From a virus (lineage: Duplodnaviria > Caudoviricetes), in the IMG/VR virus record IMGVR_UViG_3300037195_000566, positions 1-35,053 of that record: DNA of 35,053 nucleotides. The stretch is one strand, 5' to 3'. Each line of letters opens with the position of its first letter. The stretch's first letter is position 1. The translations under genes were made by a program, and so were the position numbers. The notes under the pieces are model-generated. The model searched no databases, was not told the origin of the DNA, and worked only from the letters and a program-made list of their open reading frames with translations. This document shows positions 7,492 to 34,595 of this stretch, piece by piece.

Positions 7492-7776
7492 TTATTGTAT
7501 TTCCACCTGCTTATTAAGGACTGAAACGGATGACTCCGATGCCTTAAATTCATTAATTAAAGCTGAAAATTCATTTATTTTCCAACCATATACATGACAT
7601 AGTTTAAGTAATTGATGAGCAAATATCCTATTTGTTCCATTCTCAAATTTTTGTATCTGTTGAAAACTAACTTTTAATGTTTTAGCTAATTTTGATTGTG
7701 TGAGTTTATCTTTATTTCTAAGTGATTTAAGATGCTCACCGATTTTATTATTATATTCATTTCTAGCTTGTTTCAC
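7492..7776 (-). CDS. XRE-family HTH regulator
   Basis: IGEHLKSLR...LTQSKLAKTLKVSFQQIQKFENGTNRI, an alphaproteobacterial-type XRE signature. Start likely GTG 7776 after AAGGAAAGG. Confidence 0.88.
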   Translation of the reverse strand: MKQARNEYNNKIGEHLKSLRNKDKLTQSKLAKTLKVSFQQIQKFENGTNRIFAHQLLKLCHVYGWKINEFSALINEFKASESSVSVLNKQVEIQ

Positions 7777-8263
7777 GCAAAACCTTTCCTTTAATCTCAC
7801 TATAAATTTTATGATTATTTGGTTCTTTCCAAAAAGAACTTTTAGTTAATCTAGTTTTTACATAATGTAATACAGAAGTATGATCTTTATTTAAAATTCT
7901 AGCTATTTCTGGATAGGTTAGAGCAGTACATTCTCTCATTAAATTCGCTATCATAGATCTCGATATTACTAGATATTGATATCTATATTTACCTATTAAT
8001 TCAGATCTTTGAACTTGGTAATATTCAATAACTTTATTAAATATTATTTCTGCAATTTGTTGATTATTAATTATTGGGCCAGGTGGTACATCATGCTTGT
8101 ATTTAACTATTACTTTTTGAACTTTTTGTTCGGCAGCACTACCAGCTCGATAACCATTTCTGAAAGCATTTCTATATAAAGCTATTTCTCTAGTAGATAA
8201 TCCATCAAGATGAGATACTTTTCTTGCCATAGAATAAACATGTTTAAAGTCCATTATATTCAA
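7763..8263 (-). CDS. Protein with DnaA C-terminal (domain IV) DNA-binding domain and no AAA+ domain
   Basis: V.EYY.V...EL.GK.R....V..R......L.RE.T.L.YPEI..ILNKDHTSVLH matches the Bac_DnaA_C pattern. True start may be ATG 8254. Confidence 0.85.
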   Translation of the reverse strand: MNIMDFKHVYSMARKVSHLDGLSTREIALYRNAFRNGYRAGSAAEQKVQKVIVKYKHDVPPGPIINNQQIAEIIFNKVIEYYQVQRSELIGKYRYQYLVISRSMIANLMRECTALTYPEIARILNKDHTSVLHYVKTRLTKSSFWKEPNNHKIYSEIKGKVLRETS

Positions 8264-9008: not shown

Positions 9009-9192
9009 TTTTAATCTCCTTTAATTGTTTAATATCTAAATTCTCACAAAGATATTCTAATGGTTTAAACCTAACACCTTTTTTAAATTCAAATGCTCTT
9101 TCAGTACCATCTTTATTTTCTAATATCTCTCCAGTTTCGGTATTAATTAAATAAAATTGAATATCTAATACACACGCATGATAGTTATCCAT
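9001..9192 (-). CDS. Hypothetical protein
   Basis: ORF track; overlaps both neighbours. Confidence 0.55.
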   Translation of the reverse strand: MDNYHACVLDIQFYLINTETGEILENKDGTERAFEFKKGVRFKPLEYLCENLDIKQLKEIKNG

Positions 9193-10153
9193 ATAGTTCT
9201 CCCCAATAATCAGATCTCATCATTTCTGCGACTTGTTTTTCTCGTTTTCTTGATACGTTGTGAACTGCTCCTCTAGTGATTGGGTTGGTTGCCCAGTCAG
9301 TAGCTGTTTGGTAAATCGCAAAAACTGTAAAACCGTATTTGTTACAATACTGATTCCATAAGTGATCCAAATGCTTAAGGACAAGCATACTGTTGTCATC
9401 AATATCAAGCTTTGTTTTGCGGCTTGCCAAAGTTTTCCTAAATAAGTGAGTTGTTGCTGCATTAGTAACCTTTCTTTGCATCATTTTAAATAGATCTTCA
9501 CCTAATTCCTTATGAGCTGTAACACCCATTTTAAAATCATTCATAGTGAAAGATATATCTCGTTTATCGTTATGTTTATTATAGACAACAAATGTCCAAT
9601 CAGGTCTTACCATTCCATTTAAACAAACTACATAAACAGAAGACCACATGATTTGTTGGCCCCATCTACCATCCATAGATGAATAGATTCTTAATTGTGG
9701 TATGATTTTTTCTTCAGTACCCTTGATATGAAATCCACCATCTTTATAGTTGTTTAAATCAATAGCATCATCCCAAAAATTAATTGTACGGATAAACTTT
9801 CTACCACCTTCAAGAACTTGATCTTTAGGTGTAATAGTAAATCTTTCGTAATCAGGTACAGCTTCAACAATTACTTCGTTAACCTTTTCTGCTAACTCAG
9901 CATACGGTCTTACAATGTAATCATCTGTATGAATACCAAGTAATTTACCATTATCTTTTCTTACTAAAGCATATTTATTTACTGGTATATATTCTTTATT
10001 TTCATATATTTTACCAGCATACATATCTTCAATTAAATTCAAATATGTTAACTGTTTCTTCTCTACTTCAAAATACGCACTTTTATCTATTGTGAGTTTA
10101 TTATTCGTCATCTCTATGTTAGCTGCTAAATTCATAACACCTCTTTCTTTCAT
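9185..10153 (-). CDS. DUF932-family protein
   Basis: ALVRKDNGKLLGIHTDDY, S.DG, VC.NGM, H and C-terminal T.FA.YQ..T.W pattern. Start may be 10135 after AGAGGTG. Confidence 0.75.
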   Translation of the reverse strand: MKERGVMNLAANIEMTNNKLTIDKSAYFEVEKKQLTYLNLIEDMYAGKIYENKEYIPVNKYALVRKDNGKLLGIHTDDYIVRPYAELAEKVNEVIVEAVPDYERFTITPKDQVLEGGRKFIRTINFWDDAIDLNNYKDGGFHIKGTEEKIIPQLRIYSSMDGRWGQQIMWSSVYVVCLNGMVRPDWTFVVYNKHNDKRDISFTMNDFKMGVTAHKELGEDLFKMMQRKVTNAATTHLFRKTLASRKTKLDIDDNSMLVLKHLDHLWNQYCNKYGFTVFAIYQTATDWATNPITRGAVHNVSRKREKQVAEMMRSDYWGELYG

Positions 10154-11322: not shown

Positions 11323-11505
11323 TTATTCTCCTACATTAACATTAGGTTCTTTTCGTTTTAGTTCGTAAGGTATTTCAACTTTTTCAGGCATATGTTTTGC
11401 TACCGCATAACAAAGACCTAAAACTATTCTTATTGGAAACATGATTGCAATCCAAATCCATTTAGCTGCAACATTCATTAACCAATTTTGTATTGTTTTT
11501 AGCAT
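11323..11505 (-). CDS. Small membrane protein
   Basis: Hydrophobic core WIWIAIMFPIRIVLGLCYAVA; SD AAGGAG. Confidence 0.65.
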   Translation of the reverse strand: MLKTIQNWLMNVAAKWIWIAIMFPIRIVLGLCYAVAKHMPEKVEIPYELKRKEPNVNVGE

Positions 11506-11569
11506 TTCTTTCTCCTTTTTAAGTTACACTTATTGATTGTTATCATCACCGCACATTGTGAGTACATCA

Positions 11570-11998
11570 GGGTGAGTAAAATATGAGGTCTAGAATCTCC
11601 AACATATTAAACTCACCACTGATCCCAGACCCATCGGGGGCTAGCAGTTACTCAGATGCCCAATGGATCAGGGATCAGCCCTGTTCTGCCGTTATCTAGT
11701 ATCGGTAGCCTTGCAGAGTCTAAAACTAGAAATCCACTTGCAAGTTTAAATCACGACAACTGATCCCAGACCCATAAGCTAATCGTTTCTGCTCGTTACA
11801 CCCATAAACGACAATGGGCAAACTCATTACCCTATGGATCAGGGATCAGCCCTGGCGCGGTTCCAAGTATTTCTACCATCGCTACTTATCCAGATTCCTT
11901 TATCGCGCTGATCCCAAATCCAACAGGGATGCCATTCGGCAGCAACCCCAAGCGAGGGAGCCAACCAAAGTTGGCGACCGAGCTAGTGTTTTTGCCCC
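11570..11998 (-). ncRNA. Putative structured ncRNA array: repeated conserved stem with variable loops
   Basis: Identical ACTGATCCCAGACCCAT at 11618 and 11759; identical ATGGATCAGGGATCAGCCCTG at 11663 and 11834; degenerate third arm at 11908. G-U pairs favour the minus strand. Confidence 0.6.
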
Positions 11999-12006
11999 TT
12001 TGTTTT

Positions 12007-12023
12007 TTTAGAATAATTCTAAA
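12007..12023. promoter_or_regulatory. ICE-like (Irr-binding iron control element) palindrome
   Basis: TTTAGAA-TAA-TTCTAAA, an exact fit to the TTTAGAA-N3-TTCTAAA consensus. Confidence 0.55.
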
Positions 12024-12029
12024 CACGAT

Positions 12030-12067
12030 AAAAAAAGCCCCCATAGTAATAATTACTACGAGGGCTT
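12030..12067 (-). terminator. Rho-independent terminator
   Basis: Minus strand AAGCCCTCGTAGTAAT-T-ATTACTATGGGGGCTT followed by a T-run, just after the stop at 12079. Confidence 0.8.
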
Positions 12068-13062: not shown

Positions 13063-13781
13063 CATGGGATTAGTCGAGCAGTCATCACGAGGCAAAGCTC
13101 AATGATTACATGCGACACAGGAGTCCCTCTTAGGAAATTGTTTACAATTTTCCTTAGAGGTTGCACCTTTAGTGTGCGACTCTCGTGTCCTCGTTCACGA
13201 GCATGTTCATTGAGGCAAACTCGTGCATACAAGCGAGAACATCCCGTGTGTGTGGGGGCCCCATAGAGATAATGAGAAACACAATAATCGCCCCTATCAA
13301 GGAGGTGAATTGCCAAAGGCAAGAGGAACCGTAGGTTCCTGCGATTATGAGTATCGCAATGGTTAAAATCGTAGAGCTGTATAAAAGAGATCGACCCCAG
13401 GGAGATATCTTTTATTTCAAGCTACAGCTCACGATTATAAATCTCGTATGGGGTAACAGAGCGTTGCCTGTGGCAACTCCTTATTCAGATCTTAATGTTA
13501 TCGTTCCAAGGGAGATCGTTAAGAACCGTAGGTTCTTGACAGGTCTTGCCGAGGTCAGTGTTAAATAAAGCCCCCTGTGGGGGGCGTTTAATCTTGTTAA
13601 TTATTTAACATCTGACGAAAGCAAGACCAAGGGAGGTGAGAACCGTGGGCAACGCTAGTTTGCCCACTGTCGAGGAACCGTAGGTTCCTATCTTTCTACC
13701 CTTTGCACAAATCCGAAACGAATAAGTACTTTAAAATAAACGACCAGAGGGAGTGCACCACTTGTGGTTATTTTAAATACT
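13063..13781 (+). other. Large GC-rich structured non-coding element (candidate origin or large ncRNA)
   Basis: Many nested inverted repeats, three GAACC-GTA-GGTTC hairpins and five AGG(G)AG modules; lies between the divergent gene blocks. Confidence 0.65.
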
Positions 13782-17611: not shown

Positions 17612-17750
17612 TGAGATCATTGAAGCTATTGAAGACTTACACGCACAAGAACAAGATCTATTAGAGCAATTAAAAAAAATAATTAACCCTGATGATGACG
17701 ATTTTAACGATGATGACTTTGACCGTAATGATTTTATGGATGACAAATAA
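17586..17750 (+). CDS. Small protein with highly acidic C-terminal tail
   Basis: MAKKPK...PDDDDFNDDDFDRNDFMDDK; SD AGGGA. Confidence 0.6.
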   Translation: MAKKPKTPNEIIEAIEDLHAQEQDLLEQLKKIINPDDDDFNDDDFDRNDFMDDK

Positions 17751-18430
17751 TGGGTGGTGATACTAACAGCGGAGCTGGTGATACAGAAGTTTCAGCATAT
17801 GAAGCTGAAATCACAAAACAAAATAAAGGCACTAAAAAAGAAATAAATAAAGGTGTTAACATTACAACTTATGCCGACAGAAAAGTTGATACAGCTAAAA
17901 ATACAAAAACTTTTCATGAATCAGGTAAAGTAGATAAAATTGAAAGTCCATTTCTTTTACTGAATGCTGGTAAAGATTTATTAAATAAAGGTTCAGTTGT
18001 AACTAGAGAATTTTTTACAGGTAAAGTTTTAAATAAAGGTATTAAACATAAAGGAACTCATATTAGTAAAACAGCATTTGAGCAAATGTCATTAGAAAAA
18101 CAAAATGAAATTTATGCTGGTTATATGGAAGAAAGAATGTCTGGTAAAACAGATGCTTATGGTAATCCTACAGGTGGATGGAGAAAGGAAACTGTTAAAC
18201 ATAAAAATAAAGATGGAACATATACTACTAAAGAAGTATGGGTGGGTGGTAATGATGGTGATAATAGAAAAACAGAATTACAAATAGAAACAGAATCATC
18301 AACAGCTTCAAAACAAGAAGAAGCCGAAGTTAAAATTTCGGAAGAAGAATATAAAAAAAAACGAGGATTGAAAGGATCAAGATCAATGTTTAGCAATGCA
18401 GGTGGTCGTGGTTTTCTTGATCCAGTATAA
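17750..18430 (+). CDS. Pre-portal hypothetical (virion-associated) protein
   Basis: ORF track; C-terminal KKRG..GSRS.F...G..G.L is typical of the gene before podoviral portals. Confidence 0.65.
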   Translation: MGGDTNSGAGDTEVSAYEAEITKQNKGTKKEINKGVNITTYADRKVDTAKNTKTFHESGKVDKIESPFLLLNAGKDLLNKGSVVTREFFTGKVLNKGIKHKGTHISKTAFEQMSLEKQNEIYAGYMEERMSGKTDAYGNPTGGWRKETVKHKNKDGTYTTKEVWVGGNDGDNRKTELQIETESSTASKQEEAEVKISEEEYKKKRGLKGSRSMFSNAGGRGFLDPV

Positions 18431-33180: not shown

Positions 33181-34595
33181 TGGCTATTACTATATCTGAT
33201 ACAGAACCTAGGGTTCAATATACAGCAACATCTGGACAGACTTCATTTTCTGTACCATTTGAATTTTTTACTACATCTGACATTAAAGTATATAACGGTA
33301 CTACACTATTAACCTATGCGGCTTCACCGTCATCAGGTTCATATTATTCGGTAACAGGCGCAGGAGTTTCTGGTGGAGGATCAATTACTTTAGGGAGTGG
33401 TGGGGCTACCCTTGATGATACAATTACAATTTACAGAGATTTAGGAGTTGCTAGATCAACAGACTTTCCAACATCAGGTGCTTTCCAAGTAGATTCATTA
33501 AATACAGAACTAGACAAAATTATTGCTATGATCCAGCAAGTAGAAAGAGATCTTAAATTTTCACCTAAAGCTGCAGCTACAACGTCAAGCACATACAACC
33601 TTACCTTTCCTGATCTTGTAGCAGATAAAATCCTATCCGTTAATTCGGCAGGAACAGCTTTAGAATTTTTAAATACAACAACAGATGTTTCAGCAGTTGC
33701 TGGAGTAGTAGATGAAATAGCTTTATTAGGAGTAGCTGATGTAATTACTGATATGGGTTTACTTGGAACAAGTGCTGTTATTGCAGATATGGCTTTATTA
33801 GGTACATCAGATTGTGTAGCTGATATGGCAATACTTGGAACCTCAGATGTAGTTTCAGATTTAAACACTCTTGCTACTTCAGCGATTGTAACTGATATGG
33901 ATTTATTAGCAACTTCAGCAAATGTTACAGCAATGGGATTACTTGGAACTTCAGATGTAGTTACTGATATGGGGTTATTAGGTACTAGTGCTTGTGTAGC
34001 CAATATGGCTCTACTTGGTACTAGTGACTGTGTAGCAGATATGGCTTTACTTGGAACTTCAGCTTGTGTTGCAGATATGGCTTTACTCGGTACTTCGGAT
34101 TGTGTTGCTGACATGGCGTTACTTGGTACAAGTGCTTGTGTAGCTGACATGGCAATCTTAGGAACTGCCGATGTTGTATCCGACATGAACACTTTAGCAT
34201 CAAGTGATATTGTAAGTGATCTTAATACTCTTGCGACATCTGATATTGTAACTGATTTAAGTACAGTTGCAGATAATATTGCTGGAGTAAGTAGTTTTGC
34301 CGCTAGATATAGAGTTGCAAGTTCTGAACCTGGATCAGATAATGATGAAGGAGATTTATATTATAATACTACTGCTAATACATTAAATTATTATGATGGA
34401 AGTTCTTGGAGCGCTATTACTGCTGATACAGACGTTAAAGCAGGAGTAAGTTCTAACGACACCACACCTGACTATCTTTTAAATAAATTTACAGCAGGTA
34501 CAGCAATTACAATAGTTGAAACCAATGATGGTGGAGACGAAACATTAACAATAAACGCAACAGACCCAACAGCTTTGGCGATAGCTTTAGGATAA
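33180..34595 (+). CDS. Tail fibre with T7 gp17-like N-terminal adaptor domain and a 12-aa repeat shaft
   Basis: YTA..GQT.F..PF.F....DI.VY, TDF...G......LN.ELD; repeated ADMALLGTSxCV. Confidence 0.85.
   Translation: MAITISDTEPRVQYTATSGQTSFSVPFEFFTTSDIKVYNGTTLLTYAASPSSGSYYSVTGAGVSGGGSITLGSGGATLDDTITIYRDLGVARSTDFPTSGAFQVDSLNTELDKIIAMIQQVERDLKFSPKAAATTSSTYNLTFPDLVADKILSVNSAGTALEFLNTTTDVSAVAGVVDEIALLGVADVITDMGLLGTSAVIADMALLGTSDCVADMAILGTSDVVSDLNTLATSAIVTDMDLLATSANVTAMGLLGTSDVVTDMGLLGTSACVANMALLGTSDCVADMALLGTSACVADMALLGTSDCVADMALLGTSACVADMAILGTADVVSDMNTLASSDIVSDLNTLATSDIVTDLSTVADNIAGVSSFAARYRVASSEPGSDNDEGDLYYNTTANTLNYYDGSSWSAITADTDVKAGVSSNDTTPDYLLNKFTAGTAITIVETNDGGDETLTINATDPTALAIALG
33708..34274 (+). 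repeat. About 15-16 tandem 36-bp (12-aa) coding repeats
   Basis: Units such as ADMALLGTSDCV, TDMGLLGTSACV and SDLNTLATSDIV read directly from the translation. Confidence 0.9.

Follow-up and report, generated by a model that had tools for sequence, protein, structure and literature searches.

The system that the locus described here is most like, by analogy, is a polycistron punctuated by RNase III, of whose substrates it would be a putative member. The early RNA of phage T7 is a classical RNase III substrate and, according to the accessible part of PMC6212723, the E. coli enzyme has a footprint of about 22 bp, with A-U pairs at positions D and D' and usually a G-C pair between the cuts, while one half-site can suffice in the account available from PMC1540722. 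Like T7 early sites and pre-rRNA stems, the stems of the present array are long and irregular, of about 20 bp, lie on a presumably early transcript and have a G-C-containing centre framed by A-U pairs seven positions apart, in the manner outlined in PMC6212723; with SAR11-type pre-rRNA stems they also share a single U·U mismatch. They differ in parting non-coding modules instead of genes, in that their cleavage is predicted, and in that successive arms can re-pair and thereby close the modules lying between stems. Phage stem-loop arrays processed into small RNAs are also known from TIGR systems, which, in the accessible parts of the reports (PMC12045711; bioRxiv 10.64898/2026.09.09.750476), have variable stems, two spacers of 8-12 nt lying between box C and box D, and a Nop protein, whereas the array has a constant stem, inserts of 18-112 nt lacking such boxes, and no Nop protein that we could find. 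Both boxes occurred at offset 9 in only 2 of 219 module families, with no peak at offsets 5-13. With CRISPR the array shares a constant repeat, variable inserts and a changing number of units, but it is built on two complementary arms, not one direct repeat, its inserts vary in length and belong to common structured families without protospacers, and no cas genes accompany it.

In the large RNAs OLE, GOLLD and ROOL, apical palindromes switch sequence while remaining self-complementary, which the accessible part of PMC12286853 uses, for OLE and GOLLD, as support for intermolecular pairs; these are, however, single large RNAs, and the array consists of small swappable modules with predicted processing. 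The Rfam family Ocean-VII (RF03092) has in its consensus a 10-nt word identical to one variant of the 3' arm core, but its best score was 17.6 bits against a cut-off of 53.5, nothing exceeded that cut-off in five array-bearing records, and no stem was found in 10 of the 13 loci with the word that were checked. No family of Rfam 15 passed its gathering threshold in the window or in 20 loci, the latter yielding at E<=1 sub-threshold hairpin matches only. The palindromes of the array can also be likened to the HIV-1 DIS, a symmetric kissing-loop RNA homodimer, and its layout to eukaryotic polycistronic pri-miRNA clusters, which share with it several hairpins per transcript and a release, predicted in our case, by an RNase III enzyme; in the array it is apparently the loop module, and not a strand of the stem, that functions, and no base-paired targets were seen.

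The window, that is, the whole stretch of 35,053 nt analysed here, is a virus record that is 98% complete and encodes podovirus head and tail genes, with small early genes running leftward. Its capsid is closest to that of Pelagibacter phage Hodr (58%) and 26 of the 28 matches to one of its late genes are Pelagibacter phage records, on which grounds SAR11 is the probable host. Among other features of the window, early genes at 7763-8263 and 9185-10153 carry a DnaA C-terminal domain and a DUF932 domain, and the tail fibre gene holds about 11 copies of a 36-nt repeat (33680-34256). Before the small terminase gene, on its upstream side, lies another GC-rich non-coding block (13300-13700; fold z -8.0), which contains a 17-nt near-palindrome three times (13324-13340, 13521-13537 and 13673-13689) and had no Rfam match; it is possibly a packaging or origin region, or a separate RNA.

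Five matches to the arm occur in the window, where shuffled sequence gives 0.08 on average, and the two complete stems and one degenerate 3' arm lie where an earlier note, made from the letters alone, had placed them (Table 1). The note's description of the stems holds: pair 9 is U·U and pair 12 U·G in both, with loops of 28 and 58 nt, to which we add inter-stem pieces of 81 and 58 nt. So does that of a GC-rich block without a credible ORF, since GC content reaches 46% in 11501-12000 compared with about 30% in the adjoining bins, and two short overlapping ORFs (11814-12011, plus strand; 11886-12044, minus strand) are taken as spurious because the modules beneath them differ among close relatives. 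The proposed terminator was recovered at one boundary, whereas the promoter-like site at 11555 was not found in our scan. The CAGGG assigned to the constant handle has to be dropped, as the bases preceding the arm vary in relatives, and the second hairpins between units do exist but are modules equivalent to the loops, not spacers. Folding of the two window stems is stronger on the minus strand (-33.7 versus -26.4 and -40.6 versus -28.2 kcal/mol; z -5.6 and -6.4), while the 491-nt block as a whole folds on both strands (z -4.7 minus, -6.9 plus), so that its z-score gives no choice of strand; the wobble pairs do.

Table 1. Features of the array and its surroundings in the window, in minus-strand order
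Feature	Position	Strand	Remarks
Intrinsic terminator of upstream early genes (upstream boundary)	12035..12067	-	Present too in array-less L022
Operator-like palindrome TTTAGAA-N3-TTCTAAA	12007..12023	.	Exact match; just upstream of the array
Leader module, branched hairpin	11924..12000	-	Near-identical in L016, L017, L019; shorter remnant in L022
Degenerate 3' arm	11908..11923	-	3 mismatches; folding predicts that it pairs with the next 5' arm around the first inter-stem module
Module 1, 58 nt, between stems	11850..11907	-	Near-identical between stems in L041/L353 and L088; shorter version within stem loop of L033/L058/L324/L358
5' arm, stem A	11834..11849	-	Predicted cut 11841/11840 (register test)
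Module 2, 58 nt, loop of stem A	11776..11833	-	Identical in L299, an HTVC027P-type contig
3' arm, stem A	11760..11775	-	Predicted cut 11767/11766 (register test)
Module 3, 81 nt, between stems	11679..11759	-	10-nt palindrome at 11736-11745; homologues inside loops of L004, L014, L041 and after the 3' arm in L046, L091
5' arm, stem B	11663..11678	-	Predicted cut 11670/11669 (register test)
Module 4, 28 nt, loop of stem B	11635..11662	-	Palindrome GCUAGC at 11640-11645; identical in HTVC027P-type L053
3' arm, stem B	11619..11634	-	Predicted cut 11626/11625 (register test)
Tail module, hairpin	11566..11618	-	Folds; loop with AUUCUAGA, palindrome 11589-11594; kept in L017, L019
5-nt remnant of 5' arm closing the tail module	11566-11570	-	Folds

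The palindrome just upstream of the array appears to predate it, as judged from a similar motif in the array-less L022. The same palindrome lies at most 400 nt from 63 of 260 arrays, and in the host genome G670 it has four copies in one intergenic region (G670:C1:76166-76311) and one copy (389145) 22 nt before a Fur/Irr-looking regulator gene. It resembles the Irr iron box (ICE box), and we read it as a host operator on phage early DNA.

A scan whose search pattern fixed pairs 1-10 only returned 139 distinct units. In 123 of these, pair 9 is U·U on one strand, the other 16 being Watson-Crick there. On the U·U strand, pairs 11-18 include 87 G·U against 5 A·C, and one strand is therefore the one that folds, the molecule being likely RNA, with ssDNA as the alternative. 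Stem length is 17-22 bp in 114 of the 123, the distal 6 bp occur in 49 different combinations, and compensatory changes affect 7 of 17 pairs (11, 12 and 14-18) among 50 aligned units, so that the minus-strand RNA structure first proposed is upheld by both G·U bias and covariation. In a mismatch-tolerant search, pairs 1-8 and 10 were unchanged in 182-185 of 186 units.

What the stem carries is highly diverse. From 271 loci, 429 distinct inserts were grouped by BLAST into 255 families, 183 of them singletons, with a Chao1 estimate of about 500; these counts are rough, given that single linkage merges some scaffolds while dividing others, and that a pair of simple-repeat loci is included in the family, palindrome, word-match, target and remnant counts. 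Module order varies too, with 189 signatures in 260 loci and up to four stems in a row without an intervening gene, and 18 of the 255 families are present both in loops and between stems. The modules are interchangeable, being reshuffled at the arms and placed in loop and inter-stem slots alike. Families recur across lineages with covariation of their own, and ATTCTAGA is found again in 12 of them; folded alone, payloads show modest structure (mean z -0.71). The payloads are hence recurrent structured modules, not free spacers, and the earlier picture of a constant stem with a variable payload is confirmed by relatives that differ in number and content of units. The ends of inter-stem modules pair beyond the arms (1.82 versus 0.82±0.13 contiguous pairs; 49 families), and this pairing just inside the arms suggests that a unit's 3' arm also forms a helix with the 5' arm of its successor. 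A half-arm remnant opens the first module of many arrays (75 variants).

The array is widespread in marine phages. The 3' arm alone was found in 15 viral stretches, nine of them with the partner arm, and two 10-nt cores lying 30-60 nt apart occur in an estimated 1,100 or so IMG/VR stretches, of which 121 were fetched. Of 128 loci with ORFs, 83 are HTVC027P-like, four window-like and 41, mostly short, unassigned. The cultured phage HTVC027P (MN698241) itself bears an unannotated array on the minus strand (about 17,700-18,200), directly before gp34. In the accessible part of PMC12753301, gp33 and gp34 of this phage are reported as highly expressed at 6-9 h; the paper makes no mention of intergenic or non-coding RNA. 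BLAST of the array region against GenBank phages gave chance matches only. A single stem is present in 023Pt_psg01, and none was found in L021/L022, Hodr or the 13 kb examined of HTVC023P, so the array is dispensable. Among close relatives of the window, L016-L019 (89% identical in the upstream protein) have the same flanks with other modules, and L021/L022 (61%) lack the arms, L022 retaining the flanks. The window and HTVC027P lineages clearly have just four small late genes in common, one of which was checked and is a general pelagiphage gene, and none of the four flanks the array. Hence, two unrelated ocean phage groups, one known to infect SAR11, bear arrays, and the occurrence of identical modules in lineages with so little in common leads us to infer module exchange between phage families. 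A search of 185,579 GTDB genomes gave six matches, two of them simple repeats and the other four short contigs that bear the same modules. The four contigs (L143, L144, L147 and L148) belong to unrelated bacterial genome records and are probably phage contigs binned with bacterial genomes; the lack of a dispersed family disposes of a REP or MITE, and with the Rfam result leaves the array outside the described families that the earlier note had named as checks. A short AT-rich ORF is inserted between leader and first arm at L016:4600-4780 and in L017 and L018, and small genes may ride in the array. Many HTVC027P-type arrays, such as those of L082, L047 and L155, are followed by runs of a CAAGCTT-like 7-nt repeat, just before the next promoter-like site.

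Processing of the array into small RNAs is a reasonable inference from its stems, and the step would probably be of a known kind. RNase III (PF00636) is encoded in all five Pelagibacterales genomes searched, and the array stems match the substrate length of the enzyme, with about 20 bp of double strand. When 11 registers were tried, a centre at 8/9 was alone in giving A-U or U-A pairs at both D and D' (120/123), and this register also places G-C between the cuts. The fit is post hoc, with pair 5 fixed by the search pattern, and as that pattern fixes pairs 1-10, pair 12 is the one that informs it; the flanking base pairs differ from the E. coli consensus. The predicted site coincides with the border between invariant and covarying pairs, and in folds a cut there would release each module with a closing stem of 7-9 bp. 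Turning to the host, a single U·U is held by the SAR11-type pre-rRNA processing stems of 16S (45 of 47 contigs) and 23S rRNA (17 of 17), the latter in the same C-U-G/C-U-G context as in the array, and the host 23S stem obeys the D/D' rule on one side only. The occurrence of a single U·U in both stems (L175-L279, G670) may be a signature of the RNase III sites of this host. RNA-library contigs overlie three modules in two unstranded studies, and in a second test the flanking genes were covered too; those in X2 and X3 (shares 0.08 and 0.07) overlie modules and are unable to show strand, ends or level.

Stems of this kind might alternatively serve in cis, as in T7, maturing or stabilising early mRNA with loops that are mostly inert filler. 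The precedent of T7 early RNA (accessible part of PMC6212723) and the location of the array, which immediately precedes early genes of its own strand in the window and gp34 in HTVC027P, speak for it. Nevertheless, we consider it unlikely, since up to four stems follow each other with no intervening gene, module families that covary in their own way come back in different lineages, palindromes are selected and modules swap between loop and inter-stem slots.

Selection on the loops is most apparent in their palindromes. A 6-mer palindrome is present in 138 of 203 loop-family representatives and an 8-mer in 76, compared with 83±7 and 27±5 under a structure-preserving null, leaving 65 loop modules without a palindrome; the 52 inter-stem representatives show no excess over the null. 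Palindromes concentrate in mid-loop, 62 of the 138 being centred in a predicted hairpin loop, and in two scaffolds an apical palindrome of fixed place changes sequence and stays a palindrome (13 of 15 against 3.2 expected, and 12 of 17 against 4.9). Perfect palindromes alone are enriched, self-complementary words with G·U being at the expected level (z 0.2), which fits strict dimers and also a DNA-like site. Palindromic loop modules are accordingly predicted to form homodimers, mimicry of DNA sites being the alternative.

In that alternative, loops would look like 6-bp DNA sites and thereby block restriction enzymes, methylases or dimeric regulators of the host. In its favour, enrichment is limited to perfect palindromes; the window avoids several 6-bp palindromes; restriction-modification systems were the sole defences reported in 172 Pelagibacter genomes, 19 of them positive (accessible part of PMC11066056); and palindrome use in modules is weakly anticorrelated with that in pooled phage flanks (rho -0.26, p 0.036). 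Set against this, that correlation was significant in one of four tests only, failing for the window, Hodr and the host, phages do not avoid the palindromes of their own modules (O/E 1.03 versus 0.99±0.09; 73 loci), and an A-form RNA kiss is a poor fit for readers of B-DNA. With support so mixed, the restriction-mimic version seems to us quite unlikely. The avoided sites of the window are GAATTC, CAGCTG, GGATCC, GGTACC and TGTACA (O/E <0.1); Hodr avoids a different set, and the avoidance suggests restriction pressure on both phages.

The stems could also act as a sponge, copying host pre-rRNA stems to occupy RNase III and slow ribosome production. The U·U common to both host stems would suit this role, as would the loss of rRNA signal from HTVC027P-infected cells, but the accessible part of PMC11066056 reports that loss with HTVC031P as well. 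The sponge would leave hundreds of conserved module families and their palindromes unexplained, and the host rRNA operon contains no 10-nt arm core, bar one site with a single mismatch inside 23S; we regard it as improbable. Elsewhere in the host, an apparent 9-mer excess of arm copies is due to codon usage, and 17 of the 18 GGGATCAG sites among one-mismatch core matches overlap ORFs, near the Markov expectation.

Guide or antisense RNAs loaded on a protein, the reading favoured by the earlier note, would account for a constant handle with a variable insert and for the extreme diversity of families. In exact-word tests covering 1.30 of the 1.31 Mb of one Pelagibacterales genome (G670), however, 12-16-mers from the 255 family representatives showed no excess of matches to G670, pooled phage flanks or the window, the sole borderline cell being flanks at k=16 (4 versus 1.4±1.1), and there was no excess at 1,145 host translation-start regions (k=9-13) or in 32 host tRNA and tmRNA genes; these tests are limited by short G·U seeds and by the use of one host genome. 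Hfq was absent from all five Pelagibacterales genomes, which together with the start-region result also speaks against Hfq-type antisense sRNAs. Insert length is not fixed, internal boxes C/D are lacking, and RNA polymerase, Cas, Nop, integrase and RT proteins were all missing from the window ORFs of at least 50 aa that were scanned (52 against PHROGs, 29 + 14 against Pfam), in agreement with the earlier note's exclusion of CRISPR and of Cas, Nop/IS110 and RT proteins. A weak Cas-associated match (E 7e-4) falls on a protein far better fitting a RecE/YqaJ exonuclease. The Nop model PF01798 had no match in five records including the window and HTVC027P, although a divergent Tas could escape it. 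Nor does a partner travel with the array: its flanking ORFs occur in L021/L022, which lack an array, and are missing from HTVC027P-type loci, and the two lineages clearly share no more than the small late genes mentioned above. Guiding is thus very improbable. Mimicry of, or antisense to, rRNA was suggested by short resemblances noticed by eye, but these did not stand up, with no significant excess against SAR11-type 16S and 23S (k=8-12, best z 1.9); with E. coli 16S, z reached 2.5 and 3.5 at k=11 and 12 among 40 tests, about three families being responsible. The absence of a word excess likewise speaks against tRNA mimicry; for both rRNA and tRNA, structural mimicry without sequence likeness would escape such word counts. 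The lack of a cognate recombinase, RT or integrase among the scanned window ORFs removes IS110 bridge RNAs, retrons and integron attC sites. More broadly, attC-like ssDNA sites shuffling cassettes are hardly credible, because, despite the reshuffling at arms (189 signatures, 260 loci), the G·T wobble possible in ssDNA and the small ORFs that sometimes adjoin arms, no integrase or HUH protein was seen among those ORFs, inserts are mostly non-coding and fill the loop as well, and the U·U recurs in host pre-rRNA stems.

By elimination, protein-binding decoys are favoured, for the families are recurrent and structured, diverse, early and without a partner gene. It seems reasonable to postulate that the U·U strand is transcribed, very probably and likely early, and that host RNase III would then make, with good probability, a double cut around pairs 8-9 leaving 2-nt 3' overhangs and yielding RNAs of 45-110 nt. 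Such a cut would leave loop modules closed by pairs 10-18, and inter-stem modules closed by the 3' arm of the preceding unit together with the 5' arm of the following one, which would explain why pairs 1-8 are invariant and pairs 11-18 covary, even though recombination would account for the invariant pairs 1-8 just as well. We hold with moderate confidence that many modules would form loop-loop homodimers, and see about an even chance that they bind and titrate host proteins, a separate target for each family, and turn over through recombination at the arms. The whole model, that is, an early array cut by host RNase III into predicted palindromic homodimers acting as host-protein decoys, is tentative and leans slightly towards doubt.

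The array itself is real, widespread and apparently undescribed. In the literature covered, which largely comprised sources other than subscription journals, nothing like this array, with its self-pairing, exchangeable modules and no partner gene, was found, and the words hairpin, stem-loop, intergenic and non-coding do not occur in PMC9599517; this negative is limited by the supplement of PMC5737381, which may describe related marine motifs. The model can be tested directly, HTVC027P being cultured and array-bearing, with stranded RNA-seq of its infection public under PRJNA1253180, which is named in PMC12753301. A bolder and doubtful version would see in the modules hundreds of swappable natural RNA aptamers, carried by the most abundant marine phages in an array that the host cuts, whose dimers inhibit different host proteins; if this were true, their targets would include restriction enzymes or regulators of palindromic DNA, and the modules, passing between phage families, would do in RNA what early host-takeover and anti-defence proteins do. 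An RNA array of this modular kind at the early locus, exchanged with an unrelated podovirus lineage, would be a way of taking over SAR11 hosts that has so far gone unrecognised, and would supply natural structured RNAs in large number.
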